Shown: positions 153 through 11,510 of the stretch, piece by piece | Numbering within the stretch: the first letter of the stretch is position 1 | How the letters are laid out: each line of letters begins with the position of its first letter | Origin: Puniceicoccales bacterium | GTDB lineage: Bacteria > Verrucomicrobiota > Verrucomicrobiia > Opitutales > JAIRLG01 | Assembly: GCA_031288595.1 (NCBI GenBank) | Contig: JAITRB010000012.1 | Span: forward strand, 1 to 16,843 | Length of the DNA stretch: 16,843 bases | Reading direction: 5' to 3' | Program-made: the position numbers and the translations under genes | Notes under the pieces: generated by a model | What the model was told of the DNA's origin: nothing | Databases searched by the model: none | What the model saw: only the letters and a program-made list of their open reading frames with translations

Positions 153-2507
153 CTAGAGCCAGAGCTGGGGCATTTCCCCAATGTCCAGATTCTCCAAGAA
201 TTTGGGAAGAGAGGCTGCCTTTTCCCGAAAGAGCATTTGGGCCATATTGCCTGGGCCTTTGGGGAAGAGGGATTCATCGTCCACGAGAAAGCAGCATCTC
301 TTGGCCCGCGTCAGGGCCACGTAGAGCAGACGCTCCTCGTTCTGGGTCTGCCGAAGTCCGATCTCTTCGGCGAATTCTGGGAGCTGCTGCCTGTCGAAAA
401 TCACGTGTGGGCCATCGGAGGAGGAAATCCATCTGGGGTAGCGATGAGTAGGCTCGTGTTTGCCGCGGTAGAGGAAGGGGATGATCACGACGGGCCATTC
501 GAGGCCCTTGGCCTTGTGGAAGCTGAAGAACTGAATCGCATCGGGCGCAACAGCCATCGCCGTCTCGCCCTCATCCAGAAGAGCCGCGAGTTCCCGCCAC
601 CACTCATCGAGTGTGAGGGAACGGCAGCTGGCCTCACGGGCTCGCTCGCGAAAGGCCTCGTAGTCGGGCCCAAAGCTCCTTTCGAAAATCACCTCCAGCC
701 GCTCGGTTACTCGATAGCGCTCCTGCAGATATTCCAGCATTTGTACGGGACTGTAGGCCAAAATTTCTGCATAATTCCTCTGAAAATCTTCGCAGATTTG
801 CCGAATTTCACCCTCCTCCTCCCCTAGGGCGAAGTGGCGGGCGATACGTGCATCGGAAATACCGAAGATCTCCCGAAGAACACCGCTCAGCTCGAAATCA
901 TTTCTCGGCTCCAGGGAAACTTTTATGAGCGCGCTCATCCAGGCATAGAACGGTCGGTCGCGGTACGTCGTTTCCTGAGAGTGCAGCTGGTAGGCCGGTG
1001 TGCCCGAAAGGTCTTGAAAGGCCTGAGCCAGCTCGTGTAACCATTTCTTTCTCGGGCATAGGAGCGCGATCTCCGACCACTGTTCGACTCCAAAATCCGA
1101 TGCCGAGCGCTTTTGAAAGGCCTTGGCGATGAGGCGAGCCTCTTCGCGAGGCGGTTCTTCTGGGACGCAATCGGATGAAATGAGCCACCGATAGACATGA
1201 CCTCGAACGGCATCTGGTCTTGCCTGTAGAGGGACGAAGGCAGCCTGACCCTCGACCCCCGTTAGAATTTTTGGGAACTGCGCATTGACGAAATCCACCA
1301 GCGTTCGTGGGCAGCGCAGGGTTACCGAAAAGCTGAGCGCTTCGGCCCCCTGCTCTTCGATCAGTCGCCGGTGCAGTTCCAGATAGGTCGGCAGTGCTGC
1401 GCGCTCGGCATAGATGGACTGCTGCGGATCGCCCACCATGCAGAAATAACCCGCTGCCGGAAAGCTCCAGGGCTGTCGCTGGGCACTGGCCAGGGATAGC
1501 AGCCATTCGAACTGATGGAAATCTGTATCCTGTGCCTCATCCAGAATCACGCGATGGCGGGGAATGTTTTTGGCCATCCTCTCGTCGCCCAGGCAGCGGT
1601 GGGCCAGGAGGATGAGGTCCTCGTAGAAAAGCAGTCCTTCCCGAATCCTGTACTGCAGGTATTGCTCCTGCACTTCGGCCAAAAGGGCCCGCAGGATGTG
1701 ATCTGACCAGCGCCAGTACTTTTTCATTTCCGGCAGGAGAAGGGCGAGAAAGGGTGCATGATTTGTCTCTATCTTCGGGAGAGAAGCCCCTTTTTTTCCA
1801 TCCTCCCAGTCCTTCAATTGCCCTTGCAGGCGCACGACCTGGGCGGCTCCCCGTCCCTCGGCCCTGAACTGCTGAACGGCCGCGAGCTTCAGAACCGGTG
1901 GAGGCGGGAGAGGTATTTCATCCCCAAACATGGCTGAAGCTCTTTGCAAGAATAGGGGATTTTCCCGAAGAACCGGTGCTTCCGGCACGAGGGATAGGTA
2001 GTCCCAGAGATGGAAATCGGACTGGATTTTTACCAAAAAATCCGCTGGGATGGACCGGAAGAGCGTTGTAGTTTCTCCGAGAAAGCGCCGCCAGAACGAC
2101 TGTTTTTCCGTTTCCCTCAGGATATTGAAAGCGGGAGATAGGCCCAGCACCGGGCCATGGGAGCGGAGGAATTGATGGGCCAGGCCATGGATGGTCCCGA
2201 AGAAGACCGAGGACAATGGGCCTGAGAGATCACTTTCCAGCTCCAGTGGAGATTCTCGAAGCGATTTTCCTACACGTTGTTCCAGCTCCCCAGCCGCCTT
2301 TTCGGTATAGCTCACGACGAAGAGGGAATCGTCCTCATCCCAGAGAGGTGAAACAATTTCCGCTGCGCGGTGCCGGAGCCAAGTGACGACGCGAGAGGCA
2401 ATAGCACTCGTCTTGCCCACGCCCGCCGGGGCGATGACCGAGAAGTTGCGGTCGAGTTCGTGGATGAAGCGCGAGCGCTCCGCTTCATCGGCCAAGATCG
2501 TCTTCAT
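153..2507 (-). CDS. UvrD/Rep/PcrA-family superfamily-1 DNA helicase (784 aa), no recognisable C-terminal nuclease domain
   Basis: The SF1 motifs are readable in the translation. They are APAGVGKTS (Walker A/motif I), VSYTEKAAGELEQRV (Ia), ILDEAQDTD (II), VGDPQQSIY (III), FHKAKGLEWPVV (V) and LLYVALTRAK (VI). The long ORF has third-position GC bias. Its start ATG at 2507 overlaps the rsmE stop by 23 nt. Confidence 0.85.
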   Translation of the reverse strand: MKTILADEAERSRFIHELDRNFSVIAPAGVGKTSAIASRVVTWLRHRAAEIVSPLWDEDDSLFVVSYTEKAAGELEQRVGKSLRESPLELESDLSGPLSSVFFGTIHGLAHQFLRSHGPVLGLSPAFNILRETEKQSFWRRFLGETTTLFRSIPADFLVKIQSDFHLWDYLSLVPEAPVLRENPLFLQRASAMFGDEIPLPPPPVLKLAAVQQFRAEGRGAAQVVRLQGQLKDWEDGKKGASLPKIETNHAPFLALLLPEMKKYWRWSDHILRALLAEVQEQYLQYRIREGLLFYEDLILLAHRCLGDERMAKNIPRHRVILDEAQDTDFHQFEWLLSLASAQRQPWSFPAAGYFCMVGDPQQSIYAERAALPTYLELHRRLIEEQGAEALSFSVTLRCPRTLVDFVNAQFPKILTGVEGQAAFVPLQARPDAVRGHVYRWLISSDCVPEEPPREEARLIAKAFQKRSASDFGVEQWSEIALLCPRKKWLHELAQAFQDLSGTPAYQLHSQETTYRDRPFYAWMSALIKVSLEPRNDFELSGVLREIFGISDARIARHFALGEEEGEIRQICEDFQRNYAEILAYSPVQMLEYLQERYRVTERLEVIFERSFGPDYEAFRERAREASCRSLTLDEWWRELAALLDEGETAMAVAPDAIQFFSFHKAKGLEWPVVIIPFLYRGKHEPTHRYPRWISSSDGPHVIFDRQQLPEFAEEIGLRQTQNEERLLYVALTRAKRCCFLVDDESLFPKGPGNMAQMLFREKAASLPKFLENLDIGEMPQLWL

Positions 2508-3261
2508 GGAACTGTAGCCACTGGTCGATGACGCTCAGCGCGTAAGCACTGGCGGTTTCCGCCCTCAAAACTCGGCGGGATAGGCGGACTGCACGGATGT
2601 CCTTGGTCGCCAGGAGGCGATATTCTTCCGGACTGAAATCGCCGGCCGGCCCCACGAAAATGACGAACGAAGCGAAGGCCTTGCCCGAAGCCGCGTCCTC
2701 CAGCACATTCCAGAACCTTTCCGCCTCCGGTTCCAGGCTGGCGACGAGCAGAAGATTCGACTCTGTCGGCAATGGCGAGAGATAGTCTGCCAGGGATCGA
2801 GGGGGTAAAATTTCTGGCAGAAAAGGCTGGCCTGACTGCTTGCAAGCCGCAATAGCAATCGAGCGCCAGCGCTCCGATTTCCGCCTCTCCTGCCCCGGTG
2901 GGATTTTGCCCTCGCCGTGCTCGGTGAGGAGCGGAACAATTTGGCTCACGCCCAGAGCACTTGCCTCGCGGATCAGGGTATCCATGGTCCTGTGCTTGCC
3001 TAGGCCCTGAGCCAGGATAAGGGGATGCTTTGGGGCTGAGAAGGAAGATACTTTCTGCACCTGTGCCCAGGCCTGGTTTCGATGGATCTCCAGACAGGCG
3101 AGGGCTTGGGCACCCCTTCCGTCGAGTAGATAGATCTCGGCGCCATGCTTCGCCCTCAGGACATGGAGCAGGTGATGGGCCTCTGTTCGGGGCAAAAGGT
3201 ACTTTTGACCCACTGCCCATGGCGAGGGCTGCGGGAGGAAGCAGCGAAGGTGGCTTGACAT
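2485..3261 (-). CDS. rsmE: 16S rRNA (uracil1498-N3)-methyltransferase RsmE (258 aa)
   Basis: The translation has the typical RsmE layout. The N-terminal PUA-like part reads EAHHLLHVLRAKHGAEIYLLDGRG. The C-terminal SPOUT part reads FVGPAGDFSPEEY...RLSRRVLRAETASAYALS. Size is as expected for the family. Confidence 0.85.
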   Translation of the reverse strand: MSSHLRCFLPQPSPWAVGQKYLLPRTEAHHLLHVLRAKHGAEIYLLDGRGAQALACLEIHRNQAWAQVQKVSSFSAPKHPLILAQGLGKHRTMDTLIREASALGVSQIVPLLTEHGEGKIPPGQERRKSERWRSIAIAACKQSGQPFLPEILPPRSLADYLSPLPTESNLLLVASLEPEAERFWNVLEDAASGKAFASFVIFVGPAGDFSPEEYRLLATKDIRAVRLSRRVLRAETASAYALSVIDQWLQFHEDDLGR

Positions 3262-3310: not shown

Positions 3311-3412
3311 AGGGGGCTGTCTTTGGATCCCTCTGGGATCGCTCGCGGAGCGAGCCTCAAGGGAGGAGATGAAGCCTTGGCTTCATCTCCTCCCTTGCAA
3401 AGACAGCCCCCT
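3311..3412. repeat. Structured intergenic repeat, copy 1 (closing stem plus three hairpins, 102 nt)
   Basis: 3311-3325 pairs perfectly with 3398-3412 (15 bp). The enclosed hairpins are 3326-3331/3335-3340, 3341-3346/3350-3355 and 3359-3375/3380-3396. The copy shares identical blocks GCTGTCTTTGGATCCC, GGGATCGC and CCTTGCAAAGACAGC with 10859-10953. Confidence 0.75.
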
Positions 3413-3417
3413 AAGAA

Positions 3418-4158
3418 CTAAAAAGATCTCGGGATAATCCACTCCATGTCCTGAGCAGCCACCCAGCCGGAGCGGCTCCCATCCCGCGTCGTGACATAGA
3501 AAAATGCCTCATGCTGCTTCTGCGGATACACGTAGTTTCCGCTCAGCAGGGGGGAAAGGGTGGGACTTTTTTCCGTAGGTGCGACGCGCAGCGGGCTTTC
3601 CCTTACGAGGATGGCCTGCCGGTTCTTTTCCTCCAGCTGATGGAGGATAGGCACAAGGGCGAGCCACAGGAAGAGGTCCGTCATCCAAAGGGCCCGACGT
3701 AATCTCTTGGTGGAGGGCATTGCTGAGCGGGGACAAGCGAGGAGGATGGCCAAGAGCCAGAGAGCCAGAGAAGCTACATAGGCCCAGCAGCGCCCCGACG
3801 CGGGCAGCCCGAACTTCTCGGTCCATAGGGCCTTTGAAGGACAGGAAGGACCCCGTAGCCACCACTGACGCCGCGTTTCCCGTAACGCCGCATTCCCAGG
3901 ATCCAGGTGCAGCGCCCGTTCGAGATGAAGCAGGGCCTTGCCCCACTCTCCCTTCGCCTCGTAACAGCGCGCCAGCTGGGCCGATGTCGCGGCTGAAAAG
4001 CCTCCCTTTTGGGCATTTTGATAATGGGCGATGGCCTGGTCGACATGAGCTTCCTGCAGAGCGGTATTGCCCTGATAGAAGGCATTTTCGTTCCCCTGTG
4101 CCCAGGAGCAGAGGAAGAGCATAGATCCCAAAACCGATGAGATGGGGGAAATTTTCAT
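3418..4158 (-). CDS. batE: BatE-like protein: signal peptide, TPR repeats, two TM segments, C-terminal SH3-like domain (246 aa)
   Basis: I trimmed the track ORF 3418..4206 to the ATG at 4158 (MKISPISSVLGSMLFLCSWAQG, signal-like). That ATG forms an ATGA stop/start overlap with the upstream gene. A TPR-like segment reads AIAHYQNAQ...ARCYEAKGEWGKALLHLERALHLDP. The hydrophobic segments are WAYVASLALWLLAILLA and LFLWLALVPIL. The C-terminus GWVAAQDMEWIIP looks SH3b-like. It is the last gene of the Bat-type operon. Confidence 0.65.
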   Translation of the reverse strand: MKISPISSVLGSMLFLCSWAQGNENAFYQGNTALQEAHVDQAIAHYQNAQKGGFSAATSAQLARCYEAKGEWGKALLHLERALHLDPGNAALRETRRQWWLRGPSCPSKALWTEKFGLPASGRCWAYVASLALWLLAILLACPRSAMPSTKRLRRALWMTDLFLWLALVPILHQLEEKNRQAILVRESPLRVAPTEKSPTLSPLLSGNYVYPQKQHEAFFYVTTRDGSRSGWVAAQDMEWIIPRSF

Positions 4159-5963
4159 GATGGGGTTTGGGGTCGATGCCGAAAAATTTTCTGGATAAGT
4201 TCCCAATCCTCCTGGAGGGATTTCGGAGCAAGTGGCGAAGAAGCGAAGTGCTGCAGTTCCAGGTGCTGGCAGAGGACGCGGATGCTCTGCCTGTCCTCGT
4301 CGTTTGCCAATTTCTTTTCGCAGACCGACTGAATCTCCCCATAAGTCATCGACCGGCTGTCGAAAATACCCCAGGAGGCGAGACCGGCATGGAGCGCTTC
4401 CTGTAGGGCCTTGGCAGCAAGGTCCGCCTGTCCCTTTTCGATGGCCTTCTGAGCCTGTCCGAGAAACTGACGCAGGGAGCGCCGATGGCGCCTAGGATCC
4501 CTTTGCTCGAGCACTTTGGCCCTCTGCTTCGCATAGCTCCTCTCCAGCCAGACCAAGTACAGCACCAGCGGCAACAGCTGCCACAGCCAGAAGTTTCTCC
4601 GGCGATAGAAGGGTATAAGGCTCGAGAAATGGGCCGTGTCGTTTAGGTAGAAGAACGAGCTTTCCAAAGCTTCCGGCGTGTTTTCTTGGGCCTTAGGCTC
4701 ATCCGACTTTTCTGGCCGGGCATTCAAGGGAGCATTGCCCTTCGGGGCGCTTATCTGTGAACTGATCTGCCGATTGCGCGAGACCAAAATCTTTTCCTGA
4801 AATTCATGGCGCAGGGTCTGATACTCCCTCTTCTGTGGATCGAAATAACTCATCTCCACCGTCGGCAAGGCGAGCTCTCCCGTCTTGAGGGGCATGAGGA
4901 CGTAATCAAAGATCTTCTTCCCCTTATATCGCAATGCATCGGCAGGACGGAAATCTCCCTTCGGGGAATAGGTCTTCCAGTCCTCCGCTTTACACAAGAG
5001 CCCCGGTGGGGACAGCCGCTCCCAATTACCCTCGCCTTCCACCTCGACCCGCAGGGTCAGAGGTTCTTCCAAAAGCGTCTGGATATCGGAAATCTGGGAT
5101 CGGCCGAGAGAGAAATTCCCTATCGCTCCGCCGAAAGAACTGGGGGCCGATGCCGGCAAATTCTGCACCTTGAGGAAAAGTTTTTTGGAAAAAAGTTCCT
5201 CTTCTCTATTGTCGGAGAAAAGGCCGAACCATCCCATACCCATGGGCTCCTGAATGCTGAGGCCCAGGAGGTATTGCAGGGGCATCTCTCCGGCTTTAAT
5301 GGCTGAAATCGTCGTATCCCAGGCATAGACGACCTCGCCCCCGCGATTTTGGGGAACCGAGATTTTACGCAGTTCGGAAAAGGGCCCATTGATCCATGTT
5401 TTTTCCAATAGAAGGGGATTGGGTTGAAGGAGACTACAGGAGACTGAAGAATTCAGCTCGATTCGAATGGGAATGAGCTGACCGACATAAAAGGGCTCTG
5501 CACTCAAGAGAACGGTCGACAACTGCGCGGCGGAACGCCTGGGGTGGCTTTCTGTCCAATCCTCCTCCTCAGCCTCCTCTTCTCCCTCAAACACCTGCAG
5601 GGTGGCTGAGGGCAACTCGTATTCCTTGCCCTGAAGGGAGAAAGTCTGGGCTGGAATCGTAAAACTGCCCGTTCGGCGTGCCTGAACTTGAAAGGTTTGG
5701 GTCCGCTGTATCGACTGATGGCCGTTGATGGCATGCACCGACTGCAGGTTTTGTGACGATCCGAAGCGAAGGCCATCGACCGGCGGCGGCTGGTAAATGA
5801 ACTGTGGGATATTGCCGGATGCTTCCACCACATACTGCGCGCTCTGGCCGATTCGGATTCTGGATGGCCGAAAGAAAGCCTGAAGCTGGGCATCGGCCGC
5901 AGAGGCAATCCCCAAAATCCATGGGTAAAAACCGAGGAGTCGAAACCAAAATTGCCTGTTCAT
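4155..5963 (-). CDS. batD: BatD-like (oxygen-tolerance family) membrane-anchored protein (602 aa)
   Basis: It has an N-terminal signal peptide (WILGIASAADAQ), a long beta-rich exported region, one TM near residue 450 (FWLWQLLPLVLYLVWL) and a helical cytoplasmic tail. It occupies the BatD position after the VWA/TPR genes. The call rests on architecture and synteny only. Confidence 0.65.
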   Translation of the reverse strand: MNRQFWFRLLGFYPWILGIASAADAQLQAFFRPSRIRIGQSAQYVVEASGNIPQFIYQPPPVDGLRFGSSQNLQSVHAINGHQSIQRTQTFQVQARRTGSFTIPAQTFSLQGKEYELPSATLQVFEGEEEAEEEDWTESHPRRSAAQLSTVLLSAEPFYVGQLIPIRIELNSSVSCSLLQPNPLLLEKTWINGPFSELRKISVPQNRGGEVVYAWDTTISAIKAGEMPLQYLLGLSIQEPMGMGWFGLFSDNREEELFSKKLFLKVQNLPASAPSSFGGAIGNFSLGRSQISDIQTLLEEPLTLRVEVEGEGNWERLSPPGLLCKAEDWKTYSPKGDFRPADALRYKGKKIFDYVLMPLKTGELALPTVEMSYFDPQKREYQTLRHEFQEKILVSRNRQISSQISAPKGNAPLNARPEKSDEPKAQENTPEALESSFFYLNDTAHFSSLIPFYRRRNFWLWQLLPLVLYLVWLERSYAKQRAKVLEQRDPRRHRRSLRQFLGQAQKAIEKGQADLAAKALQEALHAGLASWGIFDSRSMTYGEIQSVCEKKLANDEDRQSIRVLCQHLELQHFASSPLAPKSLQEDWELIQKIFRHRPQTPS

Positions 5964-5975
5964 GGGATAGAAGGA

Positions 5976-8261
5976 CTACCAGGGTTGGGCATTTTCCGTC
6001 GACGGAGGTGGGCCGTAGAACAGAGGTAATATCTTCTCGTCACCCGCTTCGGAATCCAGAAGTGCCTTGGCCTCCATGAGGCTCATCTTCCCATCCATGA
6101 GCTCCGGAGCTTCCCCTGTATTTCCCATGGCGACGGAGCTGGCGCTACCCTTTCCCTGTTTTTCCAGATCTTCCTCTTCGCCTCCCTCACCGGCTCCTTC
6201 TTTGGCCTCTGCCGCCCCGGAGTCCTTCCTCTTCAAGGGAGAAGGTGGTGAAGCTGCTTGCTGCTTCCCTTGGGGGACTGAGGCGTCAGATGCTTGATCT
6301 CTCGAGCCGGCAGGGAATTGTCCGGAAGATTCCCTCTTGGCTGGCGATTCCTCGGCTTCTTCTCCTGAGCTTTTCTCCTGTTCCCGCTCTCCTTTCCCCT
6401 TTCCCTCACCTTCCTGGGGCTTCTCCCCCTGAGCCGATGGTTTTTCTGAGCTCGCAGCTCGATCCTTGTTTTCCGGCGATGCTTTCTTTTCCTCTCCCCC
6501 TTTTCCCTCTTGGGGATCTGAGGGATCTCTACCCGAATCCGATGACGATGGGCCAGAGGAAGAAGGGTCTCCTTTACCCTCTCCTTTGCCCTTTCTTTGG
6601 CCTTGCTCCGGCTCCTGATGGGACTGTCCTTTACTCTCTTGGGATGGTTCCGGATCGCCGGAATCCGGTGGGGATGCTCCCGAGTCCCCTGAGGGGTTTT
6701 CCTGTCCTCTCGGTGACGACGGAGGCTTTGGGCGTGCTTCGCGTTGGCGACGGAGTTCTTCTAAGTGATGTTGAACATAGCGGCGATTCTTCTCCGCGGC
6801 TTTGTAATCCTTCGACAACGCCAAGGCACTGTCGTACCATGAAATGCTATTTTCCCAGAGCTGTTGCACTAGCCCTAAGGTTTCATCTTCTTCCTCGCTA
6901 CCATCGGCCTTAGCCCCTTCTCTCTGCTTTTTTCCCTGTTCAAAACAGATGTTTCCCAAATCAAAAAATACTCTGTTTTTAAGTTCTGGATCAGGAGTTG
7001 CGATCAGTTTGTCGAGATATTTAGAGGCCTCGATCAAGTTTTTTTGGGCCAAATAGGTTGTCCCGAGATTGTAGAGCAGCCTCGGGTCATTGGGATGTTT
7101 GGCGATTTCCTTCTCATAATAGGCTTGGGCCTCGCCATATTGTCCTTCGGCGAAAAATTTTTCCCCTGGGCTCTGAACTGCTGAGGATTCGGAAATCCCG
7201 CCCTCAAACAGGCTCGCCGCAAGACAGAGAAGGAGCCAAGAAGCTCCACGGCGCCGCTCCCATTTCCTGGGCCGCTGATAGGTGGATAGAAGGGCTTCTA
7301 GGAACCAGAGGGCTATGGCCACCAGGAGGAAGTAGGGAAATCGCTCGGTGAAGACCTTTTCCTGATATACCTCCTGTTCCTTGATGGGAAAGCGATTCTT
7401 CAGTTCATCCATCAGCTGCTGCAGCTCCTGCACCGAGAGATGGACGTAGCGCCCCTCCGTGATTTCTGCCAATTTCTTCAATGTCGTCTCGTCGAGCTTG
7501 GTAACGACCTCCTTGCCCTCGGCATCCTTGAGGTACTGCGTCATTCGGTTTTCTCCTTGAATGGGGATCATGCCTCCCTCGAGGGTGCCGACGCCGATGC
7601 TGAAGATATGGAGCCCGTTCTTGGCCGCCGATTCCGCCGCCGCGATGGCATCCTTCTTCAACTCCTCACCGTCGGAGAAGAGCAGGATAAGGCGTTCGTT
7701 GCGCGTCTTTTCCAGCACCTTCTCTGCCGCCCGTACAGCTGAGGCAATGGAGGTACCCTGCTGCGGAATCGTGTCGACATCCAGGGCTTCCACACTCTGC
7801 AAAAAGGCCCGATAGTCTAGGGTCATAGGGCACTGGATGAAGGAATCATAGGCGAAGGCGATGAGGCCGATGCGGTGGCCGTGCAGCTCTCGCACGAAGT
7901 CTTGGATGGTGATTTTCGTGCGTTCGAGGCGGTTCGGCTTTAAATCCTCGGCCAGCATGCTCCGCGACACGTCGACGGCGAAGAGCACGTCCACTCCCTG
8001 AGTGTGGTATTCTTTCCAGGTATACCCCCAACGGGGTCTGGCTAGCGCTAAGGCGCAGAGGAGCGTGGCCAGAAGACAGAGGAGATATTTCACCATCTGT
8101 CGGATCGAACTGTGGTTGAGGACGAGGTGCTGCCAGGCCTTATCCGCGAGCAGTCGACGTCTTCGGACCTGCCGCTGTTTTTCGCTGTGTAGGAAGAGCA
8201 CAACGAGACAGCCGCACAGGGCGAAACCGATCCAGATATAGAAGGGATGAAGAAAATTCAT
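5976..8261 (-). CDS. batB: BatB/BatC-like fusion: TM, von Willebrand factor A domain, TM, TPR repeats, ~210-aa acidic/Ser/Gly/Pro/Lys-rich tail (761 aa)
   Basis: I trimmed the track ORF 5976..8318 to the ATG at 8261 (MNFLHPFYIWIGF...), which forms an ATGA overlap with the batA-like stop. The VWA MIDAS motif DVSRS sits in DVLFAVDVSRSMLAEDLKPNRL. The TPR-like stretch is GQYGEAQAYYEKEIAKHPNDPRLLYNLGTTYLAQKNLIEASKYL. Confidence 0.78.
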   Translation of the reverse strand: MNFLHPFYIWIGFALCGCLVVLFLHSEKQRQVRRRRLLADKAWQHLVLNHSSIRQMVKYLLCLLATLLCALALARPRWGYTWKEYHTQGVDVLFAVDVSRSMLAEDLKPNRLERTKITIQDFVRELHGHRIGLIAFAYDSFIQCPMTLDYRAFLQSVEALDVDTIPQQGTSIASAVRAAEKVLEKTRNERLILLFSDGEELKKDAIAAAESAAKNGLHIFSIGVGTLEGGMIPIQGENRMTQYLKDAEGKEVVTKLDETTLKKLAEITEGRYVHLSVQELQQLMDELKNRFPIKEQEVYQEKVFTERFPYFLLVAIALWFLEALLSTYQRPRKWERRRGASWLLLCLAASLFEGGISESSAVQSPGEKFFAEGQYGEAQAYYEKEIAKHPNDPRLLYNLGTTYLAQKNLIEASKYLDKLIATPDPELKNRVFFDLGNICFEQGKKQREGAKADGSEEEDETLGLVQQLWENSISWYDSALALSKDYKAAEKNRRYVQHHLEELRRQREARPKPPSSPRGQENPSGDSGASPPDSGDPEPSQESKGQSHQEPEQGQRKGKGEGKGDPSSSGPSSSDSGRDPSDPQEGKGGEEKKASPENKDRAASSEKPSAQGEKPQEGEGKGKGEREQEKSSGEEAEESPAKRESSGQFPAGSRDQASDASVPQGKQQAASPPSPLKRKDSGAAEAKEGAGEGGEEEDLEKQGKGSASSVAMGNTGEAPELMDGKMSLMEAKALLDSEAGDEKILPLFYGPPPSTENAQPW

Positions 8262-9286
8262 GGCAACACCCTCCATAGACTGTAGCGAAGGACGAGTTCT
8301 AGGAGCAGGAACATCCATGCGATGAGGACGAAAATGGCGAAATACTCCTTCGTCTCCACATAGGCCTGTAGCTCGATTTCCGTCTTTTCCTGCTCATCGA
8401 TGGTCCGGTAGATCTCGCTGAATTCCTTGTGATTGTGGGCATGGAAGAAGCGCCCCTGCGTGGTCTCGGCTATTTTCTGCAGTACCGCTGTATCCAGTGA
8501 GAGTTCGGCCTGCACTATCTGGGGCTCTCCAAAGCGATTGACGATGGGGTTGCCGTCCTGGCCAACCATGAGAATGGGAACCACTCCTTCTTTCCCGATG
8601 CCGATGCTGTAGATTTTGATCCCGTAGCGCGCAGCCGCTTCCGCAGCGATTTCAGGGGATACATTCCCTCTGTTGTTGATCCCATCCGTCAGCAAGATGA
8701 GGATTTTGGACTTCGCCTCCATATCTCGCAGGCGATTACAACCGGCTAGGATGGCGGAACCGATGGCAGTGCCATCCGGAATACTGCCGATGTGAAGGCG
8801 CTCGAGGTTCTGAATCAACCATTCGTGGTTAAAGGTGACGGGGCTCACCACGTAGGATTCGGAGGCGAAGCCGATGAGCCCGATGCGATCGTGGGGGCGC
8901 TTTTCGATGAACTCCGCCGTGAGTTTTTTGGCCACGTCCAGTCGGGTGACGAGCGGCTTCGAGGGCTCCCAAAAGTCGAGGGCCGTCATCGACGATGAGA
9001 GGTCGAGGGCGATGACGATGTCAACGGCGTCCTGATGGGTCTCCTGGGATTTTTCCACGTGCTGGGGCCTCGCCAGCGCGAAGATGAGAAAGATCAGGCC
9101 CCAGGCCCTGAGGGCAAATAGTATCCGTTGAGGAGTGCTCTGGGGAGATGAGTGGCCCTTTTGCATAGGCCAGAGGCTGGGAAAGCGAACGCTGGGCCGG
9201 CGAAAGCGGCGCAGGCTCTCGTAGAGCAGCGGCAACAGCAACAGGAGCAGGAGCCAGAAGGGTGAAAAGAGTCGATAACTAGCCAT
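8258..9286 (-). CDS. batA: BatA-like von Willebrand factor A domain membrane protein (342 aa)
   Basis: It has an N-terminal TM (FWLLLLLLLPLLY). The VWA domain carries the MIDAS motif DLSSS in DIVIALDLSSSMTALDF, plus ILLTDGINN. There is a C-terminal TM (FAIFVLIAWMFLLLELVL). Its start overlaps the upstream gene's stop by 8 nt. Confidence 0.85.
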   Translation of the reverse strand: MASYRLFSPFWLLLLLLLPLLYESLRRFRRPSVRFPSLWPMQKGHSSPQSTPQRILFALRAWGLIFLIFALARPQHVEKSQETHQDAVDIVIALDLSSSMTALDFWEPSKPLVTRLDVAKKLTAEFIEKRPHDRIGLIGFASESYVVSPVTFNHEWLIQNLERLHIGSIPDGTAIGSAILAGCNRLRDMEAKSKILILLTDGINNRGNVSPEIAAEAAARYGIKIYSIGIGKEGVVPILMVGQDGNPIVNRFGEPQIVQAELSLDTAVLQKIAETTQGRFFHAHNHKEFSEIYRTIDEQEKTEIELQAYVETKEYFAIFVLIAWMFLLLELVLRYSLWRVLP

Positions 9287-9944
9287 GGGCGGCAGAAATA
9301 GCTGAATTTCCGGCCCCAGGAGAGGCTGGAGCCGCTCTGAGTTTCTCCCTTTGCTCTTGGCGGTAGAGGCGACGCAGGGTCAGGCCCAAAGTGCAGGTCT
9401 TGAGGTAGAGCGCACGTCGCTCCAGCACCGACAGCTCCTGACCGGCGAATTTGACCTGGTCGCTGAAGCGCAGCACATCGCAGAGCGCGCTCTGGGTCTC
9501 CCAATTAACGCGTTCGATCTGTTGGAAACTGTGCAGGAACTCCTCCGTCGTTTGCGTGCGGCTCTGGCGCGGGAATTCCCGCTCGATATAGCGGCGCACC
9601 CCTGTCGAGAGCAGTGTGGCGAAGGCCTTCGACTGCGCCAGCGACAGAGTTTGGCGGGCCTTCTTCAAATCCACCATCAGCTGCTCCGCCGAACTGAGGA
9701 CCTCTTCCGGAATATCGTGCCGGCGGCGCTTGAGCATCCAGGCCGTGACTCCGAGTGCCGTCAGCAGCAGCGCGAAGAGGAGGATTAAGAAATAGCGAAG
9801 CCCGAGACTTCCCGTCTCCACCGGCAGCTCGGACGGAACCCATTCCAGAGCTTCCACTTCCTCCGAGACCGTCTCTGCGCACAGGGGAAGCCCCATGCCC
9901 CAGTAGAACAGAGCACAAAAGCACTTCGAGACCCTTGATGCCAT
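9279..9944 (-). CDS. DUF4381-like single-pass membrane protein, first gene of the Bat-like operon (221 aa)
   Basis: It has a signal-like N-terminus, one TM (YFLILLFALLLTALGVTAWML), then a helical region ending ...VLRFSDQVKFAG. This resembles the small membrane protein that precedes batA in Bat operons. It is translationally coupled to the batA-like gene. The family assignment is from memory of the architecture, not a search. Confidence 0.55.
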   Translation of the reverse strand: MASRVSKCFCALFYWGMGLPLCAETVSEEVEALEWVPSELPVETGSLGLRYFLILLFALLLTALGVTAWMLKRRRHDIPEEVLSSAEQLMVDLKKARQTLSLAQSKAFATLLSTGVRRYIEREFPRQSRTQTTEEFLHSFQQIERVNWETQSALCDVLRFSDQVKFAGQELSVLERRALYLKTCTLGLTLRRLYRQEQREKLRAAPASPGAGNSAISAAHG

Positions 9945-9962
9945 AAAATGCGATGGTTTTTT

Positions 9963-9990
9963 CGGATAAAAATTGCGATTTACATGTCAA
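9963..9990 (-). promoter_or_regulatory. Candidate sigma70-type promoter for the Bat-like operon
   Basis: The minus strand reads TTGACA (9990-9985), 16 nt, then TATCCG (9968-9963), about 20 nt upstream of the ATG at 9944. The -35 is perfect and the -10 is weak (3/6). Confidence 0.25.
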
Positions 9991-10087
9991 TAAATGAGTC
10001 CATGGGCTAGCTTTTTTCATGGAGAGCTTGGGAAGCAGGGGCAGAAATTTTCGCTCGCGACCAAGTTTTGTATCGAACTCGTCGGAA

Positions 10088-10108
10088 TACATATTTAAAA
10101 AATATGTA
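10088..10108. promoter_or_regulatory. Perfect 21-bp palindrome TACATATTT-AAA-AAATATGTA in the divergent intergenic region (candidate operator)
   Basis: The 9-bp arms at 10088-10096 and 10100-10108 are exact reverse complements with a 3-nt spacer. It sits about 70 bp upstream of the ATG at 10179 and about 145 bp upstream of the minus-strand ATG at 9944, in the most AT-rich stretch of the window. Confidence 0.3.
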
Positions 10109-10178
10109 AAAAATAACCTTGAGTTTCCATCGACTCTCTGGCAGAAGTTCGGCCGAAAGGACAACCCATACTTAGGAC

Positions 10179-10721
10179 ATGAAAAATATTCTCTTCTGGA
10201 GTCTGATTCAAGCCGCGCCAGGGGAAACGCAAGTCCCTGAGGCTTTTGAAAGCGGCGAACTCGAGAAGGCGATTCAAGATCACGCCATCCAGCAATTGGT
10301 GCTCTTCGCTGTCCCCGAGTGGCGTCTGGTGCTCGAGGAATTCTGGATGCGCTGGCAGCAGAAAAATCCTGACTGCGAGCTCTGCGTCGAGTATATCCCC
10401 ACCATCCATCCTTCCTGTGGCGTTCTGAAGGCGGCCATGCAGCTGCATCTGCCCGATAGGAAAATCCACCGCGGATGGTGCTCTCTGAGCAACTCCCAAT
10501 CGTCCCACGAGGCATTCAAACAGGCTCTGGATGCTCTGTCGGAAGATCTGAAGTACCAGATCGTCTGGATAGATCTTAATCTTCCCGGCTCCCAAGAGGA
10601 GAAATTTTCTCTGCCGAAGCAGGAGGAGGAAGACCCCTACCATTGGTCCATCTTCGAAAAGGTGAGAGCTTTCGATGCCGAAAAAGCTCCGGCAACTGCC
10701 GAGTCTCCCAAGGCCAGCTGA
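10179..10721 (+). CDS. Hypothetical protein (180 aa), no family recognised
   Basis: Codons show the same G/C-rich third-position pattern as neighbouring genes, and the antisense competitor 10095..10643 does not. There is no signal peptide or TM. The protein contains CELC (CxxC) plus HPSC and HRGWC, and an acidic, probably disordered C-terminus. Confidence 0.6.
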   Translation: MKNILFWSLIQAAPGETQVPEAFESGELEKAIQDHAIQQLVLFAVPEWRLVLEEFWMRWQQKNPDCELCVEYIPTIHPSCGVLKAAMQLHLPDRKIHRGWCSLSNSQSSHEAFKQALDALSEDLKYQIVWIDLNLPGSQEEKFSLPKQEEEDPYHWSIFEKVRAFDAEKAPATAESPKAS

Positions 10722-10858: not shown

Positions 10859-10953
10859 CTCGCTGTCTTTGGATCCCAAAGGGATCGCCCGCTACGCGGG
10901 CCACAAGGAGCGAAAAAGCATCCTGCTTTTTCGCTCCTTGCAAAGACAGCGAG
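10859..10953. repeat. Structured intergenic repeat, copy 2 (closing stem plus three hairpins, 95 nt)
   Basis: 10859-10871 pairs perfectly with 10941-10953 (13 bp). The enclosed hairpins are 10872-10877/10881-10886, 10887-10892/10896-10901 and 10905-10920/10924-10939. It has the same order, spacing and + strand orientation as copy 1. Confidence 0.75.
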
Positions 10954-11126: not shown

Positions 11127-11510
11127 GAGCTGTCTGGGGGTGAGAGGTTCACTTCGGTCATTGGGCTGAAGAGGAAAGTCCGGACACCACAGAGCAGAAT
11201 GCCCCACGAAAGTGGGGGTACGCGGAGATCAAGGCCGCGTAACGGCCAGTGCAACAGAGAATATACCGCCTTCGGGTAAGGGTGAAAAGGTGCGGCAAGA
11301 GCGCACCGCGCCTGGAGTGATTCAGGTGGCAGGGCAAACCCCATTCGGTGCAAGACAGAATAGGAGATAGAGTGGCTCGCTCGTCAGAAATCTCGGGTTC
11401 GTCGCACTTCCTTCCGGGAAGAGGTCCCGAAAGAGACCTTTCGAGATCTAGAGAAATGAGCCTCGGGGCCTTGAGCCCCAACAGAATCCGGCTTACCCCC
11501 CAGACCTTTC
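11127..11510 (+). ncRNA. rnpB: RNase P RNA, bacterial type A
   Basis: The universally conserved P4 strands GAGGAAAGTCCGGAC and ACAGAATCCGGCTTA are both present. P1 is formed by GTCTGGGGG (11132-11140) pairing with CCCCCAGAC (11496-11504). GNRA/UUCG-type capped helices occur throughout. The length of about 380 nt fits, and the ends are uncertain by a few nt. Confidence 0.93.

Follow-up and report, generated by a model that had tools for sequence, protein, structure and literature searches.

A lineage-specific family of interspersed repeats with a covarying four-way-junction fold in termite-gut Puniceicoccales

The window analysed here is the whole stretch of 16,843 nucleotides from a Puniceicoccales bacterium (GCA_031288595.1, contig JAITRB010000012.1), and it holds two copies of a structured element, both in the same orientation, with P2 first on the + strand. 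Copy 1 (3311-3412, 102 nt) sits in the spacer that separates the stop of a TPR gene of the bat cluster (3418-4206, - strand) from the start of rsmE (2485-3261, - strand), and it adjoins the upstream gene, 5 nt from the stop codon. Copy 2 (10859-10953, 95 nt) lies 137 nt after an open reading frame at 10179-10721 (+), as the initial annotation of this DNA had placed it, and 179 nt before rnpB, rather than the 174 nt given there, when the Rfam start at 11133 is used. The rnpB gene (11133-11508, +) specifies a complete bacterial RNase P RNA of class A, matched in Rfam with 216 bits over model positions 1-367; the contigs of relatives that cover this region (L166-L169) end within or just upstream of it. 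A simple scan found no promoter-like site between copy 2 and rnpB. A role as terminator or promoter was considered and rejected, as neither type of site is present at the window copies.

Other features of the window can be noted briefly. Upstream of copy 2, the reading frames 9505-10515 (-) and 10179-10721 (+) overlap on opposite strands; a codon model and Logan gene calls favour the + strand frame of 180 amino acids. Pfam has no match for this frame or for the 221-amino-acid frame at 9279-9944. Inside the reading frame 5976-8318 (-), positions 6387-6616 hold three copies of a pyrimidine-rich, low-complexity repeat with a period of ~95-97 nt, and the interval 6001-7000 has an AT skew of -0.36 and a GC skew of -0.13. 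The gene here is of VWA/TPR (BatB/C-like) type, and the product of the repeat is probably a Glu-, Gly- and Lys-rich linker in repeated units.

Both copies of the element fold as a four-way junction on each strand, in the minimum-free-energy as well as the centroid structure. The closing stem P1 is followed directly by P2 and P3, then by a 2-nt linker and by P4, which abuts the 3' arm of P1; the linker holds the only unpaired bases of the junction. In copy 1, the 5' arm of P1 (3311-3325) consists of a variable outer AGGGG and the conserved core GCTGTCTTTG, and it pairs with CAAAGACAGC followed by CCCCT (3398-3412). In copy 2, CTC precedes GCTGTCTTTG (10859-10871) and GAG follows CAAAGACAGC (10941-10953). 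P2 and P3 are 6-bp hairpins with 3-nt loops. P2 (3326-3340 and 10872-10886) is GATCCC/GGGATC in both copies, with the loop TCT in copy 1 and AAA in copy 2. P3 has the form GCYCGC/GCGRGC: in copy 1 (3341-3355), GCTCGC and GCGAGC enclose GGA, a C-GNA-G triloop, and in copy 2 (10887-10901), GCCCGC and GCGGGC enclose TAC, whose opposite strand, GTA, is a GNA triloop. P4 occupies 3358-3397 and 10904-10940 and is 17-19 bp long in the window copies. Its perfect pairing had been described correctly, but its length had been put at 17 and 16 bp; copy 1 in fact has 18-19 bp, and copy 2 has 17 bp closed by the loop TCC.

Each of the differences that the initial annotation had listed between the two copies holds. 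The sequences, read directly, share the identical blocks GCTGTCTTTGGATCCC, GGGATCGC and CCTTGCAAAGACAGC. The outer part of the closing stem is AGGGG/CCCCT in copy 1 (3311-3315 with 3408-3412) and CTC/GAG in copy 2 (10859-10861 with 10951-10953), and the third pair of P3 is T:A in the former and C:G in the latter. P4 has a CAAGG/CCTTG base in both, above which the distal sequences are unrelated (that of copy 1 occurs in copy 1 alone), with perfect pairing in each. Loops and linker differ freely (TCT/AAA, GGA/TAC, CTTG/TCC and CT/CA), whereas the stem differences are compensated throughout, and all pairs of the window copies are Watson-Crick. A repeat search of the window recovered the relationship as a direct repeat of 47 nt with 81% identity (3316-3362 and 10862-10908), and P4 of copy 1 as an inverted repeat with 19-nt arms that are 100% complementary. 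P2 of the window copies also contains GGATCC and GATC, BamHI and Dam-type sites; because other copies of the family have GAGCCC, GCTCCC or GATTCC in P2, these sites are not a conserved feature.

The predicted folds are very stable as RNA and as DNA. RNA folding gives -84.6 and -70.9 kcal/mol for copies 1 and 2 on the + strand (z = -11.1 and -10.6) and -83.4 and -70.1 kcal/mol on the - strand, and none of 200 shuffles is as stable as the window copies. DNA folding of the + and - strands gives -50.5 and -49.9 kcal/mol for copy 1, and -47.2 and -46.9 kcal/mol for copy 2 (z ~ -11.5 to -12.2).

The two window copies belong to a large family. A P1-only pattern (GCTGTCTTTG, 55-85 nt, CAAAGACAGC), scanned against one genome per species, matched 68 loci, of which ~50 lie in three metagenome-assembled genomes (MAGs) of termite-gut Puniceicoccales: Pcl387_bin38 (JAITKE), Pcl387_bin136 (JAITIW) and Ct408_bin121 (JAIRRP), called bin38, bin136 and bin121 below. 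The other 18 loci are single matches in unrelated taxa, against a chance expectation of ~17 estimated beforehand. The P1-P2-P3-P4 fold is seen in every one of the 63 copies with the exact core, the two of the window among them. A covariance model, R1, which scores copies 1 and 2 of the window at 98.5 and 100.3 bits, finds ~126 distinct copies in 348 kb (the three MAGs and the window); the window itself holds only the two. About half of these ~126 copies differ from the exact P1 core, and element length ranges from ~95 to 115 bp across the family. A further Puniceicoccales contig (L167) carries a copy as well. On 628 kb of unrelated metagenome loci, R1 yielded nothing convincing, which indicates that the model is specific. 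A JGI metagenome scan with a broader family pattern gave 95 loci, none of them confirmed by the model save for one 25-bit match (in L103), and a viral scan gave one contig, which is unrelated.

Searches of catalogued RNAs and of the literature did not recover the element. At the Rfam 15 gathering threshold, only rnpB and a tRNA are reached in the window, and the element is unmatched; at E values up to 10, the matches are spurious miRNA-type hairpins on P4. ARAGORN reports only tRNA-Ala at 11-86 of the window. Literature searches found no description of a Verrucomicrobia or Puniceicoccales repeat of such kind. The repeat family is previously undescribed, and it is specific to the lineage of termite-gut Puniceicoccales (Verrucomicrobiota).

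The genome closest to that of the window is bin38, with ~80% nucleotide identity in genes, and the window genome is otherwise recorded only in a Logan contig of SRR14710895. On the contigs of relatives, extra copies occur once every 3.5-7 kb, a density that is biased upward because these are fragmented MAG contigs chosen for carrying a copy. Contigs of bin38 often begin or end ~100-250 nt from a copy (L006, L010, L021, L045, L061, L069 and others), and some copies are cut by contig ends (L045:1-86 and L028:5312-5406). The repeat family probably fragments these MAG assemblies, hence the short contigs ending at or near copies.

Covariation across the family extends to almost the entire fold. In a structure-aware alignment of 120 copies, which was fitted to R1 and hence leans toward the structure, 97.5% of cells are paired, and two-sided changes occur at 34 of the 37 pairs and amount to 1,061 cells, a count that is inflated by subfamily descent. 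None of 500 shuffles reaches the observed values, and slid partners give 39-52%. The picture is similar in a MAFFT alignment of the 63 exact-core copies: 96.1% of cells are paired, 24 of 37 pairs have changed on both sides, no shuffle out of 500 reaches the observed values, and slid partners give ~39-47%. The claims drawn earlier from two copies, that the fold is under selection and that simple duplication is not enough to explain the pattern, are borne out at this scale, with pairing and compensated changes kept in all four helices across 120 copies.

Conservation of sequence is concentrated at the junction. Its consensus is GCYGNCTTTG/CAAAGNCRGC in P1, GNNYCC in P2 and GCCCGC in P3, and the first pair of P4 is almost always C-G. 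P1 itself covaries: one pair is U:A in 88 copies and C:G in 32, and another is U:A in 68, C:G in 33 and G:C in 19. Covarying variants of its core include GCTGCCTTTG/CAAAGGCAGC, GCCGCCTTTG/CAAAGGCGGC and ACCGCC../..GGCGGT, and only the G-N-C-T-T-T adjoining the junction is nearly invariant. The arms of P1 comprise a 10-bp conserved core and a median of 4 further paired bp. In the distal parts of the arms, sequence varies freely and complementarity is kept. GC content of the sampled DNA is 46% in bin136, 56% in the window and 61% in bin38, and the junction core is the same in all four genomes.

The course of these changes can be followed among close copies. Between nearest-neighbour copies that are at least 90% identical, unpaired sites differ at 19% and paired sites at ~4%, about a fivefold difference, and stem breaks are accordingly far from being as frequent as loop changes. 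Double, compensated changes become more frequent as divergence rises, and in close neighbours single changes are as frequent as doubles or more so. Instant templated correction from arm to arm was rejected on these grounds; ordinary compensatory evolution suffices. One mirrored 1-bp indel between orthologues (L016 and L065) is still suggestive of templated correction. It was also considered whether P4 arms are copied from nearby or other genomic sequence. The 85 matches found, as against 33 in a crude shuffle, can be accounted for by purine-rich composition and undetected copies, and the idea was set aside.

The copies are dispersed between genes. By the approximate calls of a simple, crude codon-model gene caller, 109 of 126 copies fall clearly between genes, and for most remaining ones the overlap is limited to the upstream (5') extension of a reading frame. 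Co-directional, convergent and divergent spacers hold 57, 16 and 15 copies, respectively, the same proportions as those of the 116, 25 and 26 such spacers available. Neighbouring genes are of the housekeeping kind, encoding adenylate kinase, PheS, Tsp, ClpB, ComM and an ABC permease, and some spacers are tightly filled (L004, L009, L016, L019 and L060). There is no conservation of the flanks beyond ~8 nt outside the 10-bp P1 core, which lends no support to the longer, looser element suggested in the initial annotation. Where T and A runs are present, the T run is found ahead of the element and the A run behind it.

Side-by-side copies are common, often with a GCTGTC-type copy next to a GCCGCC-type copy. 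Examples are L053:3559-3654 with 3790-3903, L015:2472-2581 with 2658-2771, L005:5716-5820 with 5888-6001, and L040:4664-4761 with 4794-4910. The two types lie ~30-135 nt from each other, in many cases inverted, an arrangement that resembles the alternation of REP types in BIMEs. The P4 of the GCCGCC type (GGAAAAATGAAAGC-TCCC-GCTTTGCATTTTTCC) is conserved across MAGs. Some bin38 copies have expansions of CCCACCC or GGGTGGG-type tracts in the loops of P3 or P4 (L026:3556-3673, L056:2607-2739 and 6846-6976, and L010:352-502); such tracts could form a G-quadruplex or i-motif.

The evidence on the dynamics of the family, spread as against persistence, is mixed. On the side of spread, near-identical copies occur at unrelated bin38 loci, where identity ends at TTTTTTGGGG...CCCCAAA and the flanks are unrelated, and subfamilies are genome-specific. 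An extra copy in bin136 (L035:469-578, -) lies between tRNA-Ala and the 3' end of uvrD, where the window has only a 66-nt spacer (87-152); presence and absence also differ for extra copies in L023 and for a copy after clpP in L167 that is missing in the window. Target-site duplications are not apparent: at k = 2, direct repeats flush with the paired ends flank 2 of 122 copies, fewer than in the offset control. None of the pairs of empty and filled sites is close enough to define the insertion ends.

On the side of persistence, the initial annotation had asked whether relatives carry the element at syntenic positions, and one does: copy 1 has a counterpart in the same rsmE-TPR spacer of L035, where flanking genes are ~66% identical. 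The two copies differ in the P1 extension, P2, P3 and P4, and every difference is compensated. Ten orthologous sites are common to the MAGs, and many copies occupy orthologous sites in species with genes 66-79% identical. In one trio of such sites, nothing in the spacer can be aligned except the element core. Orthologues of bin136 and bin121 show compensated substitutions and one mirrored 1-bp indel. At shared sites, bin38 often has a copy of its own subfamily, which suggests re-insertion at preferred sites or gene conversion; at the orthologous sites of L053 and L063, copy content has been swapped for a genome-specific subfamily.

The reading that we favour, with moderate confidence, is that the element is a non-autonomous interspersed DNA repeat of REP/REPIN-like character, selected for the four-way-junction fold of a single strand through a junction-recognising protein. 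The unit of selection would be the fold of one DNA strand, exposed at replication or by cruciform extrusion. We infer both this single-strand DNA substrate and a candidate trans-acting protein, which would be structure-specific, recognise the junction core, and copy or maintain the element without target-site duplication. If only copies with still-pairing arms are propagated or retained, the compensated pattern across subfamilies would follow. Many copies lie inside operons and are therefore also transcribed; effects on mRNA would likely be side-effects and not the selected function. Against this reading stand the ordinary housekeeping nature of the flanking genes and the failure to find a mobilising gene. 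The 218 proteins called in the sampled loci include neither a transposase nor the product of a multi-copy gene, and tblastn and phmmer searches with E. coli RayT gave nothing below E = 1 in the ~370 kb of sampled DNA, so that the anticipated association with a RAYT or IS200-type gene was not seen in this sample. The copies at orthologous sites amid unalignable spacer also fit a host function or gene conversion equally well or better.

A more specific proposal, possible though on balance doubtful, is that the family represents a new class of single-strand-DNA element defined by its four-way junction. In that case, a putative junction-specific enzyme other than RAYT would read the conserved crossover sequence, and it would copy the element without target-site duplication or hold it at the same sites in the long term.

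Among the alternatives, one that we consider unlikely places the selected fold in RNA. The element would be a cis-acting RNA in polycistronic mRNAs, whose nearly perfect P4 and P1 duplexes would be cut by RNase III or would stop 3' exonucleases whichever way round a copy lies, so that operon transcripts are punctuated or stabilised. The location of the copies lends this some weight: many nearly fill short co-directional spacers, as copy 1 does, and must therefore be transcribed, and their positions are kept across species. Strong covariation, too, would be expected of a structured RNA, and the RNA fold is equally stable in both orientations. However, of the copies in co-directional spacers, 27 have the P2-first strand in the mRNA and 30 have it antisense, and the family does not shun divergent promoter spacers. 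Copy orientation is not linked to local GC skew either. Moreover, RNase III cutting or an exonuclease block needs no conserved sequence at the junction core.

The base pairs and loops bear on the same issue. In a functional RNA, wobble pairs are as a rule tolerated solely on the strand that is transcribed. In the family, G-U pairs are rare, ~1.5-2% of pairs, and split about evenly between the strands, 102 to 82, as against ~5,340 Watson-Crick pairs. Folding energy is symmetric too, the difference between strands averaging -0.4 +/- 3.6 kcal/mol. The loops of P2 and P3 are closed by 5'-C...G-3' in 96% of cases. The first and last loop bases are nearly always G..A, T..C, A..A or T..T, with A..G and C..T all but absent; about a quarter of the loops are AAA/TTT or another non-GNA sequence. 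The loops match the C-GNA-G motif when read on either one strand or the other. The C-GNA-G trinucleotide loop is an exceptionally stable DNA mini-hairpin, and its stability needs the C-G closing pair (PMC3201870, PMC13037366). The strand that carries the GNA loop is independent of transcription direction and of GC skew. Strand symmetry and loops together favour selection on a fold available to either DNA strand and argue against a strand-specific RNA, while leaving room for an orientation-independent RNA effect such as RNase III cutting of long perfect duplexes. The orientation-independent role proposed in the initial annotation agrees with these counts; its other half, a role at the level of DNA, is an interpretation that they suggest.

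A rather improbable alternative, on a par with the cis-acting RNA, is that the element has been domesticated by the host as a structural site in DNA. The junction, formed from supercoiled DNA or single strands, would be bound or cut by a chromosomal protein such as gyrase, an HU/IHF-like protein or a junction-binding protein, and would organise supercoiling domains, as has been proposed for BIMEs. The persistence of the core fits well, both at orthologous sites whose flanking spacer has diverged past alignment and over genomes that range so widely in GC content. The same can be said of the symmetry of strand and orientation, of the BIME-like clustering of different subfamilies side by side, and of a junction that is unpaired only at its linker. 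Yet the replacement of orthologous-site copies by genome-specific subfamilies speaks against a fixed host site, and recent duplicates and differences in presence or absence resemble the dynamics of selfish elements. No candidate binding protein was identified, and extrusion of such a branched structure from duplex DNA would presumably be kinetically demanding.

It is very improbable that the copies are independent small RNA genes of ~100 nt in many copies, each a cloverleaf with P4 as a variable specificity arm. Random orientation relative to neighbouring genes, tRNA-like size together with a four-way junction, and the hypervariable P4 are what such genes might show, but a conserved promoter or terminator is lacking, as is conservation past 8 nt of flank; wobble pairs have no strand asymmetry, the variable P4 is entirely self-paired, and neither ARAGORN nor Rfam matches the element. 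That the window's two copies, the only ones in it, reflect chance or the trivial recent duplication of a palindromic segment is refuted by the P1-only scan, by more than 120 R1 copies in four genomes, and by the 120-copy covariation, with z ~ -11 and chance-pairing controls below the observed values.

The family bears on a wider question. REPs, BIMEs and MITEs are common in bacteria, and it is debated whether the thing selected is a DNA fold, an RNA fold or mobilisability. The present family offers an unusually clean case, with a branched fold of four helices and not a simple hairpin, more than 100 diverged copies in which almost every base pair covaries, symmetry of strand and orientation, and loops that match a DNA hairpin stability motif. 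Some copies are conserved in position across species and others are recent duplicates. The family can therefore serve as a test bed for telling DNA-level from RNA-level selection on structure and as a lead to a candidate junction-recognising protein. It also illustrates that strong covariation alone is no proof of an RNA gene. Should a junction-specific enzyme indeed be at work, the element would be either a substrate of a new kind for transposition or a structural signal, genome-wide and Holliday-junction-like, that the host has taken over.

Several known systems resemble the element in part. Some of the resemblances are to single features. The C-G-closed P2 and P3 hairpins recall the d(GCGNAGC) mini-hairpin, and many P3 hairpins contain literal GCGNAGC (GCGAAGC, GCGGAGC), although in this family the motif makes up just a part of a larger repeat. 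Unlike a tRNA, the element has no ARAGORN match, and its P2 and P3 loops of 3 nt are not D and T loops. It also differs from an intrinsic terminator, as neither window copy has a terminator-like site, with a T run after a GC-rich hairpin on the transcribed strand.

The recombination sites attC and the end hairpins of IS200/IS605 share with the element a structure that is kept while sequence and length vary, and the lack of duplication on insertion; recognition would likewise be of a folded single strand. The element lacks the R''/R' core sites of attC (RYYYAAC/GTTRRRY), its extrahelical bases and the single orientation of cassette arrays, and it occurs in both orientations between housekeeping genes. 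The two distinct sub-terminal hairpins of IS200/IS605 contrast with the closed junction found here.

MITEs such as Correia, ERIC/IRU, RUP and bcr1 are similar in size (~100-150 bp), in having terminal inverted repeats (P1 in the present case), in their intergenic location and many copies, and in a stable fold predicted on transcription. In contrast to MITEs, the element is not flanked by a target-site duplication, the bases beyond its conserved inverted repeat are also complementary and vary between subfamilies, and its internal hairpins covary strongly. The sampled loci showed no autonomous IS sharing these ends that could be its parent.

The closest likeness is to the REP/REPIN-RAYT and BIME systems. 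GTAG repeats have been reported in Opitutus terrae, itself a verrucomicrobium. Like REPs and REPINs, the element is extragenic, occurs in either orientation and in many copies, has a hairpin fold that would be selected in single-stranded DNA or mRNA, makes no target-site duplication and forms genome-specific subfamilies; like BIMEs, it has clustered copies with different subtypes side by side. REPINs show compensatory changes across the hairpin (PMC3116915), a property that the element shares. REPs carry a GTAG or CGTC head (PMC3733652), whereas the element has the conserved core GCYGNCTTTG...CAAAGNCRGC and no such head, GTAG being incidental where the P3 loop is GTA. Instead of an imperfect palindrome of 20-40 bp, or a symmetric doublet of inverted REPs, it forms an asymmetric four-way junction, with two 6-bp hairpins and one long hairpin within a closing stem. 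Dyad symmetry is absent, with P2 and P3 placed opposite the long P4, and R1 scores are ~50-60 bits lower on the reverse strand. Conserved sequence lies at the junction here and at the tips of the arms in REPs, and no RAYT accompanies the element in the ~370 kb sampled. Because it has no GTAG/CGTC head, dyad doublet, target-site duplication or attC core, and no RAYT was found in the sampled DNA, the element is placed in no named family; it is rated as a member of the structured interspersed extragenic repeats at large, and as one that behaves like REPs, REPINs and BIMEs.
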